Positions 24 to 13,624 of a stretch of DNA of 64,000 nucleotides are shown piece after piece. Made by a program: the position numbers and the translations under genes. Within the stretch, counting starts at the first letter, position 1. Every line of letters starts with the position of its first letter. The DNA lies in the sequence record PV714129.1. The stretch is one strand, 5' to 3'. Under the pieces are notes generated by a model. It was not told the origin of the DNA. It saw only the letters and a list, made by a program, of their open reading frames with translations, and did no database searches. The stretch comes from Escherichia phage Mizar.

Positions 24-353
24 TTATACTCTAGGCTTTTGAGCTTGTTTGGTATTGGATTCCCATGCGGCTTTGGTAATTTTGTTAGCGGCATAGCCAA
101 AGGCATTAGATAGAACACCTTTAGAGTTGAATACATCCAATCCAATAAGTACACCTGCTGTGTTAAATTTAGGAGCAAAGTACGCATTAGTTTTAGAAAG
201 AGCTTTTTTCAATTCAGGGTCTTGAACCAAGCCATCAAAAACGCCTTTACTATTTACTTTATATGTTACTTTGGGATTTTTACTTTCTTCGATAGCAGCT
301 TTCTGTTCCGCAGATAATGTAACTTCAGTGATAAACTCTTGATATGTTTTCAT
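24..353 (-). CDS. putative internal head protein (IPII-like), N-terminal capsid-targeting sequence MKTYQEFITE
   Basis: ORF 24..419 trimmed to internal ATG at 353 preceded by AAGGA; N-terminus MKTYQEFITE matches the T4 IP capsid-targeting sequence with an I-x-E gp21-type cleavage site; immediately downstream of denV. Confidence 0.55.
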   Translation of the reverse strand: MKTYQEFITEVTLSAEQKAAIEESKNPKVTYKVNSKGVFDGLVQDPELKKALSKTNAYFAPKFNTAGVLIGLDVFNSKGVLSNAFGYAANKITKAAWESNTKQAQKPRV

Positions 354-360
354 TTTTTCC

Positions 361-774
361 TTAGTAAATTGATTTACCATAGTATTTGTACCAAGTTGGA
401 CGTTGAGCAATTTTTTCATCTAAGCGTGCTTGACTTATCGCAATGGACGCTTCGGACGGGACATAATTATTACGAAATTCGGCAGGGATGTCGGAAATAT
501 CCTGGACTGTCGTGTCCTTGATTTTGAAACCACGTTTCAAACATTCGGCGATTAGCTCGATTTGACGTAAACGTAAAAATTCAAGTTTGTCGTAAAAGAA
601 TGTTACGTGACCTGTGCCTAAGATAAATGTTGGAGAGATTTTAAAATCCTTTACACGTTTACCGTTTTGAACATGTTTACGGACTGCACCAAATACGCGT
701 GGTAATTCACGATACTCAGCCATAAGATGTTGGTCGGTCAGTTCAGAAACAAGTGTTAAATTGATACGAGTCAT
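361..774 (-). CDS. denV: endonuclease V (pyrimidine-dimer DNA glycosylase/AP lyase)
   Basis: Protein [31 protein letters not shown]... is near-identical to T4 DenV as recalled; ATG at 774 with GGAGG SD. Confidence 0.9.
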
Positions 775-831
775 AATTTCCTCCAAGTAGTTGATAGATG
801 TATAGTATCAAAGTCCTTGGAGGAAGTAAAC
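775..831 (-). promoter_or_regulatory. PeSL-like early promoter cassette upstream of denV
   Basis: Minus strand GTTTAC -N18- TACTAT, leader CATCTATCAACTACTTGGAGGAAATT-ATG; 10-bp inverted repeat TTCCTCCAAG/CTTGGAGGAA brackets the -10 and contains the SD. Confidence 0.6.
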
Positions 832-832
832 A

Positions 833-1129
833 CTATTTTTCTGAAGCGCCTGAAATATATTTTTCAAGACGTTGTTTCATCAGCGAGCCGTTCTTAGCGA
901 TTTCTTCTGGTTTATCGCACATACGCAACAAGGCTTCAAGCTTAGCGATATCGCTGGTACGTTCAAATTTGCGAGTATCTATCTTACTAGCAAGTTCAGA
1001 AATACGTGCTAATAGACTTTCAGCTTCAACCAAAGCTGCACCTAGCTTAGTTGCAAATGTGTCAGTAGCTTCGTTAAGAATAGATTCTGATAAAAATTCA
1101 CTATATGTTTTCATATATACGCTTTCCAA
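833..1129 (-). CDS. putative internal head protein, CTS-like N-terminus [10 protein letters not shown]
   Basis: 98 aa ORF between e and denV, where T4 carries ipIII/ipII; N-terminal CTS-like decapeptide ending L-S-E. Confidence 0.5.
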
Positions 1130-1599
1130 GTTCCTGTTTTAAATGTTGAGATTACGCGTTTCGCTCGATTAGGTGTCTGACGGTACCATTTAGATTGGGC
1201 TAGATTTACTGCCGCTTCATCCCAACGTTTCTGTTGAAGCATACGAAGAGAATTAGTAAAACCAGCGACGCCTGCTACACCCATTTGGAAGACCATATTG
1301 ACCAATGCACACCGACGAACTGCATCTAAAGAATCATATACCGGTTTAAGTTTAGCGTTACCCAAGATTCCGCGGACGGCTTTATCAACGTCTTCATTAA
1401 ATAGCTTTTCAGCCTCATCAAGGGTAATTGTACCGTTGCATTTACGACCGATCATTCTGTCAAGTTCAGCTTTAGCTACGGCTAAAGACGGGTTCTTTGT
1501 TACTAAATGGCCTATGCCAATCGTCCAAAAGCCTTCAGTGTCTTTGTATAAAGTCAGTCTAAGACCTTCGTCATTACGAAGCATTTCAAATATATTCAT
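1111..1599 (-). CDS. e: lysozyme (endolysin, T4 e homolog)
   Basis: [32 protein letters not shown]... matches T4 lysozyme with catalytic E11/D20/T26 context; start set at ATG 1599 (MNIF) after GGGAGG. Confidence 0.92.
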
Positions 1600-1600
1600 A

Positions 1601-1626
1601 ATACCTCCCACGTTTATAGGAGGTAT
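1601..1626 (-). promoter_or_regulatory. SD-sequestering hairpin upstream of lysozyme gene e
   Basis: Inverted repeat ATACCTCC...GGAGGTAT whose 3' arm is the GGAGG SD of e; same architecture as the T4 e translational control element. Confidence 0.55.
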
Positions 1627-1633
1627 TTATTAC

Positions 1634-2092
1634 TTATAGGAGGGTAGTGAGCACCTTATATAACGATTTGCCCATTACATATTCCCATTGAGAAGGTTTA
1701 ATTAAAGCGAATGCATCAAATTCAGGAATCTGTCGTCCGCCTTGGAATGTATGATAGGAATTACAAACACTGTTTCTGAATTGCTCGTGCTCTACAGGGA
1801 TGGTATATAGGAACAGATGAATATTCTTATTGTCTGAGTAATGATGTTCACCTAGGTCTTTCAGGAAGGCAGGGTCATATTGTGTAAACCCAGTTTCTTC
1901 TTCGCATTCACGAATAGCGGCTTCAATAGGAGATTCGCCAGGTTCGACACGGCCTTTAGGAATATCCCACCGATGAGTTAATGCACCTTTAGGACGAGAA
2001 CCAGTTACACGCCCCATGAATAATTCTTTATCTTCGGTAAGGAAAATAATACCGGCTGATAGCTCTTTCACTTTATTTTTCTTACTCATCAT
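1634..2092 (-). CDS. nudE: Nudix hydrolase
   Basis: Nudix box G-x5-E-x7-REC-EEETG present (GRVEPGESPIEAAIRECEEETG); syntenic with T4 nudE (e.1) next to e. Confidence 0.85.
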   Translation of the reverse strand: MMSKKNKVKELSAGIIFLTEDKELFMGRVTGSRPKGALTHRWDIPKGRVEPGESPIEAAIRECEEETGFTQYDPAFLKDLGEHHYSDNKNIHLFLYTIPVEHEQFRNSVCNSYHTFQGGRQIPEFDAFALIKPSQWEYVMGKSLYKVLTTLL

Positions 2093-12054: not shown

Positions 12055-12058
12055 TTAC

Positions 12059-12349
12059 TCACCGTACCATATTAATGTAATTATACTCAATACATTCAAG
12101 ATTTAAAGGATTCTTGAAAATATCATATTCAAGAGGACCTTTTTCTGTTTCAATAAAGAAATCAAAGTTCACGCTATTAAATTTACGGTCTTCCCAAAGT
12201 AATTTAACCTGTGAAGATGAACGGTCAATATAAACCTTTTCAACTTCAAAGAGGGTCAGAATACCGTAGTCATCAACTAGTGCTTTAGCTGCACGTTGGT
12301 CGCTTTCATAACCGTTCTTGACGGATGATACTTTAGCATAAAGAATCAT
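12059..12349 (-). CDS. hypothetical protein (96 aa)
   Basis: ORF tightly packed with neighbours. Confidence 0.45.
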   Translation of the reverse strand: MILYAKVSSVKNGYESDQRAAKALVDDYGILTLFEVEKVYIDRSSSQVKLLWEDRKFNSVNFDFFIETEKGPLEYDIFKNPLNLECIEYNYINMVR

Positions 12350-12726
12350 GAATGTTCCACCACTTCAAAGGTGTGAGCATCAACAATATGATACCAGTCA
12401 AAATTTTCTTCAGCGTTTTTATAAATTTCGCGAAGAGCCTCAACAGTTTTTCCTGTAGCAACAAGGTCGTCAATACCACCAAGAGGATAACAGTCATAAC
12501 CAGCAAACAGAAGGAAATTAATAGTTTCTGTAGGTTCTGGATGCAAAACACCATTATCATCTACCACTTCAAAGAAAGTGTAAGAAGGAGTACAAGTTTT
12601 AATCCAGGCCCATGCTTGAGCTGCTGAATCAAACGGATTACGGAATAAACGACAATCCGGGTCTTTAGAAGGATTTGCTTCAAAATCCGCATATACATGA
12701 TATTTCATTTTACTCACCTTTTGCAA
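12346..12726 (-). CDS. hypothetical protein (126 aa)
   Basis: ORF; ATGA-type overlap with downstream ORF. Confidence 0.45.
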   Translation of the reverse strand: MQKVSKMKYHVYADFEANPSKDPDCRLFRNPFDSAAQAWAWIKTCTPSYTFFEVVDDNGVLHPEPTETINFLLFAGYDCYPLGGIDDLVATGKTVEALREIYKNAEENFDWYHIVDAHTFEVVEHS

Positions 12727-12895
12727 TTTTATCCATAACGATAGCGATTAAGCCGATTAGAAATGCTACTACCAATGAGATAGAATTTTCTGTTGTTGTC
12801 AGTAGTCCACAAATGAATCCTACAAACATCGAAAAACTAAAAGCCATTGAAGCAATTACTACAGCAACATTACGAATCAGTTCAGCGCGTTTCAT
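12710..12895 (-). CDS. small membrane protein (61 aa)
   Basis: Two hydrophobic segments; downstream of PeSL-like promoter. Confidence 0.45.
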   Translation of the reverse strand: MKRAELIRNVAVVIASMAFSFSMFVGFICGLLTTTENSISLVVAFLIGLIAIVMDKIAKGE

Positions 12896-12954
12896 TTTAT
12901 TCTCCTCAGTAGTTGATAGGGTAATAGTATCACCACCCTATCTAAAAGTAAACG
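12896..12954 (-). promoter_or_regulatory. PeSL-like early promoter cassette
   Basis: GTTTAC -N18- TGaTACTAT then TACCCTATCAACTACTGAGGAG; inverted repeat GATAGGGT/ACCCTATC. Confidence 0.55.
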
Positions 12955-12964
12955 GTTTTATAAA

Positions 12965-13273
12965 CTATTTTATTCCGCGTGATGCAATCGTATTCTGCCG
13001 TTTAACACCAGTTTGTTTAAAGTCATGACTGTCGATTTGATCGGTGCGAGCAACTCCGAATGATGATTTAATCTTAGCTTTAGATCCTTTAGTTATAGAA
13101 ATAAACATCTCGGAAGACCCTTTCTTAAAGTCTGATGCAGATACTTCAACACCGTTCTTAGCAAGTGACCTCAGAATTGCATCCGCGTACTCATCATCAA
13201 GACTCGCTTGAGTATTAATAACAAATGTCTTTGGTGCAGCCGCTTCATTGATAAATTCTTTATAGGTTTTCAT
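12965..13273 (-). CDS. putative internal head protein, CTS-like N-terminus MKTYKEFINE
   Basis: 102 aa; CTS-like decapeptide ending I-N-E; own PeSL-like promoter. Confidence 0.5.
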   Translation of the reverse strand: MKTYKEFINEAAAPKTFVINTQASLDDEYADAILRSLAKNGVEVSASDFKKGSSEMFISITKGSKAKIKSSFGVARTDQIDSHDFKQTGVKRQNTIASRGIK

Positions 13274-13334
13274 TTTATTTTCCTAATTAATTTTGATAGG
13301 ACTACTATAACATAGTCCTATTAGCATGTAAACT
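13274..13334 (-). promoter_or_regulatory. PeSL-like early promoter cassette
   Basis: GTTTACA -N17- TATAGT then AGTCCTATCAAAA; inverted repeat ATAGGACTA/TAGTCCTAT. Confidence 0.55.
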
Positions 13335-13336
13335 AC

Positions 13337-13624
13337 TTACAGAAGGGTTTTTGCAATAATTTTAAGCTGAGCTACAGAAATATGCTTAGCTTTAAACAGT
13401 GCGGTCTCTTCGGCCGGAGAGATAACAACAGTAGCGCCATCTTTCTTAGCAGACCATCCATCCCCTAAGTAAACAGTACCTTTTACTTCTTCACCATCAA
13501 CCAGACTAATCATCGGTTTACCCTCACGTCCTTTATTTGCTTTAATAACTTCGGAAGTAAGGGTTGCTTCGGTCAGAGTAGAAACGTTAGCAACAGGTGA
13601 TATAAATTCTTTATAGGTTTTCAT
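13337..13624 (-). CDS. ipI: putative internal protein I homolog (95 aa), N-terminus MKTYKEFIS
   Basis: Same size and position (directly downstream of 57B) as T4 ipI; CTS-like N-terminus with LTE site; own PeSL-like promoter. Confidence 0.55.
   Translation of the reverse strand: MKTYKEFISPVANVSTLTEATLTSEVIKANKGREGKPMISLVDGEEVKGTVYLGDGWSAKKDGATVVISPAEETALFKAKHISVAQLKIIAKTLL

Follow-up and report, generated by a model that had tools for sequence, protein, structure and literature searches.

Which internal proteins does a T4-like phage of the RB69 group carry into its host, and how far can they be recognised from the first residues of their genes? The question is raised by Escherichia phage Mizar (sequence record PV714129.1), of which we analysed one stretch of 64,000 nucleotides, hereafter the window. 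Five open reading frames (ORFs) in its left part, all on the minus strand, start with variants of the short leader, or capsid-targeting sequence (CTS), of the T4 internal proteins (IPs). The first 15.2 kb of the window are 95-97% identical, with at least 90% of the length covered, to T4-like coliphages of the genus Mosigvirus (the RB69 group), the closest matches being LF82-41, CEV1, vB_Eco_mar005P1 (mar005P1) and ATK47, and we assign the window by this similarity to a Mosigvirus, an RB69-like T-even phage. We consider it likely that the five ORFs are ip genes of this phage, whose products would be docked by their leaders, trimmed by the prohead protease gp21, co-injected and active as inhibitors of host defences. 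The five genes are as follows, a slash marking a predicted cut and pI standing for isoelectric point.

24..353, minus strand: gene of the RB69ORF123c family ('ipA'); 109 aa, leader MKTYQEFITE/VTLS; predicted mature part 99 aa, pI 9.7, Lys-rich
833..1114, minus strand: ip5-like gene, RB69ORF127c family; 93 aa, leader followed by SILNE/ATD; predicted mature part about 9 kDa, pI 6.3
9141..9767, minus strand: leader gene of a putative third locus, phrog_2280; 208 aa, leader MYTFNEFLAE/TEVITE/AG; predicted mature part about 22 kDa, pI 9.7
12965..13273, minus strand: ip7; 102-aa precursor, leader MKTYKEFINE/AAAP; predicted mature part 92 aa, pI 9.7
13337..13624, minus strand: ipI orthologue; 95-aa precursor, leader MKTYKEFISPVANVSTLTE/A; predicted 76-aa mature IPI*

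A common leader in front of unrelated bodies

The original prediction, made from the letters of the window, had listed these five N-termini; all five exist and translate as quoted. One set of limits, 833..1129, had to be shortened, as it ran to an upstream TTG start while the MKTY start is the ATG at 1114. When the six-frame translation of the whole window was searched with the regular expression M-x-T-[YF]-x-[ED]-F-[ILVM], exactly five matches were obtained, every one at the first Met of a minus-strand ORF, which leaves no false positive within the 64 kb. The number expected by chance is 0.011 from amino-acid frequencies and 0.005 from 200 second-order Markov randomisations, with a maximum of one match. 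An independent repeat search likewise grouped the five 30-nt leader-coding segments into a single direct-repeat family (D6, 73-77% identity). A looser expression returned one more ORF, at 46170-46310 (MSEYINLVVA), which was rejected: it has neither Phe7 nor Glu10, and about two such matches are expected at random.

Suppressor mutagenesis of the T4 IPIII leader has assigned targeting to residues 4 and 7 and processing to residues 8 and 10, and Asp10 was found to block cutting but not packaging (Mullaney and Black 1996, as summarised in PMC9026906). In the window, an aromatic residue at position 4 and Phe7 are present in all five leaders, with Tyr4 in four and Phe4, the state of T4 IPI, in 9141-9767. 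Ile or Leu at position 8 and Glu10 are present in four (ITE10, LSE10, LAE10, INE10), and the fifth, the IPI orthologue, has LTE19 instead, as T4 IPI does. The likeness to the T4 IPI/IPII/IPIII leaders that had been proposed thus holds at the mapped positions, and the leaders of T4 IPII/IPIII are nearly the same (MKTYQEFIAE in T4, MKTYQEFITE in the window). Additional conserved gp21 sites are predicted at LNE15/A in 833-1114 and at ITE16/A in 9141-9767. The constraint on the leader acts on the protein: Thr3, Glu6 and Ile8 are encoded by differing synonymous codons, and positions 5 and 9 vary freely.

Behind the leaders the mature parts are unrelated to one another, as had been stated: no pairwise BLASTP comparison among the five, or with T4 IPII/IPIII, gave an E-value below 0.1, and the window holds no orthologue of IPIII. 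Four of the five are basic, Lys-rich and free of Cys (pI 9.0-9.7, 10-25 Lys), as are T4 IPI-III.

The machinery that would act on such leaders is encoded further along the window.

42692..43339, plus strand: prohead protease gp21; tblastn with T4 gp21, 87% identity, residues 1-209, E=2.5e-123
43373..44185, plus strand: major scaffold (core) protein gp22; 77% identity to T4 gp22, full length
42031..42692 (ORFs 42031-42267 and 42267-42692), plus strand: prohead core proteins gp67 and gp68; tblastn, gp67 58% over residues 1-45, gp68 81%

The window's own gp23 and gp24 bear cut sites of a like kind (FLTE/A and LLRE/S). In T4 the IPs co-purify with gp22 (PMC9026906), and the CTS alone packages foreign proteins, its first 10 residues being sufficient (PMC9026906, PMC3012670). 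Each precursor in the window would, by its T4-type leader of about 10 residues, bind the gp22/gp67/gp68 scaffold core during prohead building, and gp21 would then cut after [L/I]-x-E, at residue 10 in four proteins, with a possible second cut at 15-16 in two of them, and in the IPI orthologue at residue 19. Once released, these small proteins, most of them basic and rich in Lys, would stay with the DNA, be injected with it and act in the host prior to any phage gene expression. Packaging of the leader-bearing proteins is the step that we hold to be highly probable.

The clearest member is 13337-13624. It matches Pfam PF11634 (IPI_T4; E=3.2e-50, 168.4 bits against a gathering score of 25 bits), with residues 20-95 covering profile positions 1-76, as well as the structure of IPI* (PDB 2JUB; E=8.2e-42 over residues 20-95), and its mature part is 93% identical to T4 IPI and falls in phrog_4363, 'internal virion protein'. 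Like T4 IPI, it is 95 aa long, lacks Glu10, has a 19-residue propeptide ending in [IL]-T-E/A with the predicted cut site at residue 19 (LTE/A), and lies next to 57B with an early promoter and a stem-loop. These features identify it as a true orthologue of IPI, which T4 injects to inhibit GmrSD, a type IV restriction enzyme of E. coli CT596, and by analogy it would most likely inhibit a GmrSD-type enzyme too. Alignment to the three T4 proteins, which the original prediction had proposed as a check, thus recovered one orthologue. The other four ORFs, unlike IPI, are outside this family: none matches PF11634 or any other Pfam entry, and their bodies show no BLASTP similarity to the T4 proteins. 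Matches to NUMOD1 (E=0.15) and SIX1_SD (E=0.1) among the leader ORFs were dismissed as far below the cut-offs.

The ipI locus had been taken to hold two copies; one of its genes is ipI and the other, 12965-13273, is unrelated to it and encodes Ip7. Its ATK47 orthologue is annotated 'internal head protein 7 / Ip7, similar to RB15 Ip7 CAA84464', it belongs over residues 1-102 to phrog_2667, 'internal head protein' (E=4e-42), and its body is 66% identical to RB69ORF156c and 89% to WG01 Ip7. A weak likeness to DARPin/ankyrin proteins was dismissed, the best E-value being 0.0012 and no single stretch passing alone.

Similarly, 833-1114 is an Ip5 homologue, 48-51% identical to ip5 of T2, PP01 and AR1 over 90% of its length and matching phrog_3499, 'internal head protein', over residues 1-87 (E=2e-46); the family is annotated 'internal head protein' in LF82-41, Av-05 and EcNP1. 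It fills the slot between e and denV that holds ipIII and ipII in T4, while ip5 of T2, PP01 and AR1 lies on the ipI side, at about 70-72 kb of their records. Because its ATG overlaps the stop codon of e (lysozyme) as ATGA, the gene is predicted to be translationally coupled to the late-translated e. Upstream of e there are late-promoter-like boxes and a hairpin that would sequester the ribosome-binding site (RBS), as in the regulation of T4 e.

Concerning 24-353, which starts 8 nt after denV, no Ip name is attached to it. It belongs to phrog_3966, labelled as of unknown function, and its family comprises 90 phage records, all 'hypothetical' or unannotated. One search gave near-identical sequences only; exhaustive HMMER and tblastn searches also recovered the distant Dhakavirus homologue P0023 (ORF115 of WG01), which occupies the same slot after denV and keeps 9 of the 10 leader residues at a body identity of 32%. 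An AlphaFold2 (AF2) model shows a small alpha+beta domain behind a disordered leader, with a predicted local distance difference test score (pLDDT) of 76.8. The exhaustive HMMER search also linked the protein to giant proteins with arrays of the MBG_2 adhesin repeat (PF18676; E=1e-12). This match is an artefact of summation over repeats, with 3-7 bits per repeat, no Pfam match for the protein itself and no beta-grasp neighbour of the AF2 model.

A leader gene beside the tRNA cluster

All five genes had been placed at the ipI and e/denV loci. This holds for ipI and ip7 and for the ip5-like gene, which lie within the two hyperplastic IP loci (57B-tRNA.4 and e-denV); 24-353 lies just past denV rather than between e and denV, in a slot that also holds leader ORFs in RB69, mar005P1 and WG01, and 9141-9767 lies at neither locus. 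It adjoins the tRNA cluster, about 3.2 kb from ip7 and 7.5 kb from e. Leaders are also found at this tRNA-side site in RB69 ORF149c, WG01 ORF139 and PG7_146. ATK47, a very close relative of the window, has no leader ORF there, and in T4 (62-77 kb) the pattern matches ipI, ipII and ipIII only, in agreement with the three IP genes that the original prediction had counted for T4; the 9141-9767 family is absent from that phage.

The family (phrog_2280, labelled as of unknown function; E=1e-57) comprises 143 phage records, which include Mosigvirus, Dhakavirus, Karamvirus and T4-like phages of Klebsiella, Serratia, Kosakonia, Erwinia and Yersinia; among the matches listed, members are called 'hypothetical protein', are unannotated or belong to records without annotation. 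Nine of 11 relatives retain leader positions 4, 7, 8 and 10, at body identities of 33-72%, and Glu16 is invariant and Ala17 nearly so, which predicts a second [IL]-x-E/A site. The protein has a net charge of +12 and two helical domains, which a Pro/Ala/Lys-rich linker of about 40 aa connects; in the AF2 model (pLDDT 72) residues 74-113 are disordered, and in a structure search the helical domains resemble generic bundles only. In size and charge it is close to T4 IPIII (21.9 kDa and pI 9.68 for the 208-aa protein; 20.4 kDa and pI 9.65 for IPIII).

Two signals stand directly in front of the gene.

9803..9810, minus strand: T4-type late promoter box TATAAATA; exact match, 43 nt upstream of the 9141-9767 ATG
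9812..9846, minus strand: GC-rich hairpin with a T6 run, terminator-like; fold -18.4 kcal/mol, z=-3.3 against shuffles; directly upstream of the late promoter

The box is found at -43 in mar005P1, at -35 in Karamvirus PG7 and at -34 before WG01 ORF139, with 7 of 8 matches in RB69 and in Klebsiella phage Biddle, and a hairpin with a T-run likewise precedes the homologues in mar005P1, PG7, Biddle and WG01. The arrangement of terminator and late promoter in front of a homologous or analogous leader gene is therefore conserved in three genera (mar005P1, Karamvirus PG7, Dhakavirus WG01). The hairpin is predicted to insulate the gene from upstream tRNA and small-RNA transcription; an Rfam scan of 9000-11600 for the rnaC/rnaD family upstream of the gene returned three tRNAs only.

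These same features raise the possibility that the 9141-9767 protein, and perhaps others of the five, is mainly a structural or DNA-associated component of the head, with a role in charge neutralisation, DNA organisation or core assembly, and not an inhibitor of defence. A family that is syntenic and spread over so many genera and enterobacterial hosts, expressed from a dedicated late promoter behind a terminator, with a disordered, strongly basic linker and domains of generic fold, would fit such a role, and T4 mutants lacking IPIII or all IPs (IP0) accumulate polyheads, the IPs being found with gp22 (PMC9026906). However, T4 IPIII, with the same profile of size and charge, specifically inhibits GmrSD and does so in the cytoplasm even when its CTS is missing (PMC9391042, PMC12373910), and the family must be dispensable for head assembly because T4 and ATK47 have no leader ORF that belongs to it. 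The two roles can also coexist. We regard a mainly structural function as unlikely, yet as the most serious of the alternatives.

We favour the reading of 9141-9767 as an ip gene, encoding a late-expressed, IPIII-sized member of the class whose Lys/Pro-rich linker would suit it to riding on DNA; it may have a DNA-associated role in addition to or instead of defence inhibition. A bolder proposal can be put forward tentatively, and we would sooner bet against it than for it: the family may be an unrecognised, widely conserved internal protein of a third IP locus, located between the tRNA/small-RNA cluster and e.8, with its own late promoter and a histone-H1-like Pro/Ala/Lys linker to travel on DNA, and may be the counterpart of IPIII in the many enterobacterial T4-like phages without it; this family and the RB69ORF123c family could between them contain the first injected inhibitors of defences that recognise arabinosyl-hydroxymethylcytosine (arabinosyl-hmC) DNA.

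Gene order, cassettes and recombination in the leader

The gene order in the left part of the window parallels the T4 map at 64-75 kb and reads, in minus-strand direction, gene 1, 57A, 57B, the ipI locus, tRNA.4-tRNA.2, tRNAs, e.8-e.2, nudE, e (lysozyme) and denV. The set of leader genes within it had been called expanded. For the clade it is not an expansion, because the same region holds seven leader ORFs in RB69, nine in WG01 and six in mar005P1, next to five in the window and four in ATK47, and the literature counts from at least 10 to more than 30 IP variants (PMC12373910, PMC2839356).

The nine leader ORFs of Dhakavirus WG01, in a 28-kb piece, are 80-289, 368-589, 591-863, 924-1232, 3233-3697, 12384-12782, 12865-13461, 14001-14360 and 14369-14626. 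They include a true orthologue of IPIII (ORF117) and, at the tRNA-side site, ORF139 preceded, like its counterpart in the window, by the terminator and TATAAATA; the annotation 'hypothetical protein' is given to five of the nine (ORFs 147, 139, 118, 115 and 114).

The following elements were recognised around the leader genes of the window.

13645..13699, minus strand: T4-early-type promoter (GTTTACA ... TACTAT, with TG) overlapping a stem-loop, upstream of ipI; repeat family D2; promoter scan 13687..13659
13272..13339, minus strand: second promoter and stem-loop, a cassette boundary in the gap between ipI and ip7; family D1; scan 13332..13304, TTTACA-17-TATAGT, 10/12 with TG
12892..12964, minus strand: third promoter and stem-loop, in the gap between ip7 and the tRNA.4 homologue; repeat families D1, D2 and D5
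340..360, minus strand: recombination junction inside the leader/RBS; three-way DNA comparison with RB69 and mar005P1

Because of the first three, ipI and ip7 are each bracketed individually. On the 57B side the order is 57B-ORF156c (Ip7-like)-ipI in RB69 and the inverse, 57B-ipI-ip7, in the window and ATK47, while mar005P1 has ipI only and WG01 four leader ORFs. The stretch after denV holds three leader ORFs in RB69 and mar005P1 (125c, 124c and 123c) but only the last of them in the window. Here 664 bp are missing relative to mar005P1, corresponding to the bodies of ORF125c and ORF124c. The DNA upstream of the junction at 340-360 is that of the denV-to-ORF125c junction of RB69 and mar005P1, and from the ATG onward it is that of ORF123c, so that both end-points of the difference lie in homologous RBS/leader sequence. 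This is a direct example of leader-coding DNA as a site of recombination. Reportedly, Repoila had in 1994 proposed the leader itself as a recombination linker.

The turnover of the repertoire would accordingly proceed by homologous recombination both between promoter/stem-loop repeats and between leader-coding sequences. Promoter/stem-loop shuffling of ip genes is attributed to Repoila et al. 1994 by PMC2839356, and recombination in leader DNA is in line with what is reported there. The T-even genes Ip4-Ip10 and beyond present the same picture of small ORFs with only the leader in common, in hyperplastic loci flanked by early promoters and stem-loops and subject to cassette gain and loss. The PeSL cassettes (Arbiol et al. 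2010, PMC2839356) likewise consist of repeated promoter and stem-loop elements between which gene order and content vary among close relatives, and the IP-associated elements of T-even phages are considered analogues, not homologues, of the PeSLs of RB49 (PMC2839356). Unlike in PeSL shuffling, one junction in the window lies in leader-coding sequence and not in a promoter element.

If leaders recombine, some of them might be mere hitch-hikers, acquired through shared RBS/leader DNA by ordinary early cytoplasmic proteins, the gene behind denV (24-353) being the foremost candidate. Besides the junction at 340-360, this possibility could draw on the lack of a nearby late promoter at 24-353, ipI and ip7 and on the decayed leaders of two RB69 alleles. 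That of 24-353, ORF123c (RB69 piece 14501-14830), has the leader MKTYQEFIAA, in which Glu10 is lost with no replacement site nearby; that of 833-1114, ORF127c (RB69 piece 13076-13357), starts with MKTYMNFYQN and has lost Glu6, Ile/Leu8 and Glu10 while keeping Tyr4, Phe7 and the downstream LNE15/A site. A hitch-hiking leader is nevertheless hard to reconcile with the constraint on the protein seen in the 24-353 family, where the leader outlasts a body that has diverged to 32% identity and its codons differ synonymously. The proven T4 IPs share the early-promoter architecture, and any protein that bears the leader during prohead assembly should enter heads, since the first 10 residues package foreign proteins (PMC9026906, PMC3012670). 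We thus consider this explanation very improbable. That the shared N-termini are a compositional coincidence, for which the AT-richness of the genome is the sole argument, is refuted by the five matches against the 0.005-0.01 expected, all at ORF starts on the transcribed strand, and by the retention of the motif in homologues from other genera.

Several neighbours of the leader genes deserve mention. The 57B homologue that adjoins the ipI locus (13702-14157, minus strand) matches the Pfam family Acb1 (E=1.8e-58), an anti-CBASS protein (CBASS, cyclic-oligonucleotide-based antiphage signalling system), and because of this protein next to the IP cassettes the region can be regarded as an anti-defence neighbourhood. 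Within the tRNA cluster, an ORF of 223 aa (10567-11238, minus strand) lies between tRNA-Arg (10506-10581) and tRNA-Asn/tRNA-Met (11307-11459) and has weak matches to DUF559/RAP (Vsr-like endonuclease) and NUMOD3; the corresponding slot of T4 holds the homing endonuclease segB, and ATK47, mar005P1 and RB69 lack both the ORF and tRNA-Asn. It is probably a mobile homing-endonuclease insertion.

Further copies of the early promoter with stem-loop (D1, D2, D5), reading on the minus strand, occur at 788-842, 3797-3864, 4083-4137, 5367-5439, 8467-8534 and 9028-9069. As they are scattered through the region of small e.x ORFs, 0.8-13.7 kb can be seen as one zone of cassette shuffling. This zone also contains a local family of paralogues without Pfam match, encoded by three tandem small ORFs (5433-5630, 5640-5912 and 5922-6227, minus strand; 65, 90 and 101 aa) with the common C-terminal motif W-V-[SA]-S-S-x-x-C. 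In addition, five ORFs of e.2-e.5 (2315-2743, 3495-3800, 6224-6583, 6562-6987 and 6926-7549, minus strand), several of which are predicted membrane proteins, share the motif F-[IV]-x-E-[CI]-R at or near the C-terminus (..FIKECRGK, ..FIKECRK, ..FITECRNLR, ..FVKEIRCKSLNS and ..FIMECREYV..), whose coding DNA forms the repeat family D18. Outside the zone, Hoc (49185-50600, minus strand) gave two overlapping tblastn alignments with T4 Hoc, at 77% and 68% identity, which suggests an extra or rearranged Ig-like domain.

What the leader proteins may do

The class to which these genes belong is well known. Many ip genes were identified from the leader by Repoila et al. 1994 (EMBO J 13:4181), 'at least 10' as cited in PMC12373910, and a count of more than 30 IP variants, described as packaged in the head and injected 'for phage defensive/adaptive functions', goes back to Comeau et al. 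2007 as cited by Arbiol et al. 2010 (PMC2839356). Ip1, Ip2 and Ip3 each inhibit one GmrSD variant (Silas et al. 2025, PMC12373910), and IPII and IPIII (Ip2, Ip3) are injected inhibitors of GmrSD-ECOR21 and GmrSD-ECOR17 (PMC12373910; PMC9391042). Silas et al. 2025 have proposed GmrSD variants as the targets of every protein encoded at 'the two Ip loci' (PMC12373910), and the view of each IP as a distinct injected anti-defence effector, which the original prediction shares, is likewise a published hypothesis (PMC3012670; PMC12373910). The gene class, known since 1994, and its interpretation are established, and our observations are mostly ordinary and of modest novelty. What may be new are the families of 24-353 and 9141-9767, which unlike Ip4-Ip10 carry no Ip name in the records examined, although an earlier naming by Repoila 1994 or Comeau 2007 is possible; one of them defines a third site of leader genes, by the tRNA cluster.

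By analogy with T4, the Ip7, Ip5-like and RB69ORF123c-family proteins would most likely each inhibit a single target among the other first-line defences; our best guess for these targets is further GmrSD or type IV variants acting against hmC DNA that carries sugar modifications. For the four proteins other than IPI, we give an anti-defence role about an even chance.

A number of observations weigh against the scheme of leader-docked, cleaved and injected inhibitors. The DNA of the RB69 group carries arabinosyl-hmC and not, as in T4, glucosyl-hmC (PMC9026906, PMC13326640), so that T4 targets cannot simply be transferred to Mosigviruses. AF2 models could be obtained for 24-353 and 9141-9767, in line with the structure prediction proposed originally, but searches by structure and by sequence gave no functional clue for any of the four non-IPI bodies, and the literature searched yielded no usable virion proteome of Mosigvirus, Dhakavirus or fHe-Yen9-01 covering any of these families. 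Since the RB69 alleles have degraded leaders, processing at residue 10 is not indispensable in the ORF123c and ORF127c families. The mature Ip5-like protein, with a pI of 6.3 and one Cys, is unlike the classic IPs, and the conservation of the 9141-9767 family over several genera is unlike the fast turnover expected of inhibitors engaged in an arms race. Finally, no TATAAATA is present within 150 nt of ipI, ip7 or 24-353, which have early-type promoters or denV upstream. This last point is weak evidence against IP status, because in T4 an early element of this kind likewise precedes ipI, ipII and ipIII, and TATAAATA is absent from within 130 nt of them.

On balance we retain the five ORFs as likely ip genes, with a conceptual gain that is small. 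They offer four testable candidates from the arabinosyl-hmC (RB69) lineage, a clean natural case of leader-to-leader recombination changing the repertoire, and a broadly conserved 22-kDa candidate, predicted to be expressed late, at a locus that is not listed for IPs and has been missed by annotation pipelines. A third IP locus would, if true, contradict the published confinement of IP genes to two loci (PMC2839356, PMC12373910). The decayed leaders of RB69 are naturally occurring variants with which the need for cleavage or for targeting could be examined, and scanning T4-like genomes for the leader would be a cheap way to give new annotations to hundreds of genes now called 'hypothetical'. 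The targets of the three IPs of T4 have become known after 50 years, and the dozens of other leader-bearing proteins represent an unexplored library of specific defence inhibitors. Because such injected proteins would act before phage gene expression, they would decide whether a T4-like phage, therapeutic or wild, survives first-line defences such as type IV restriction.

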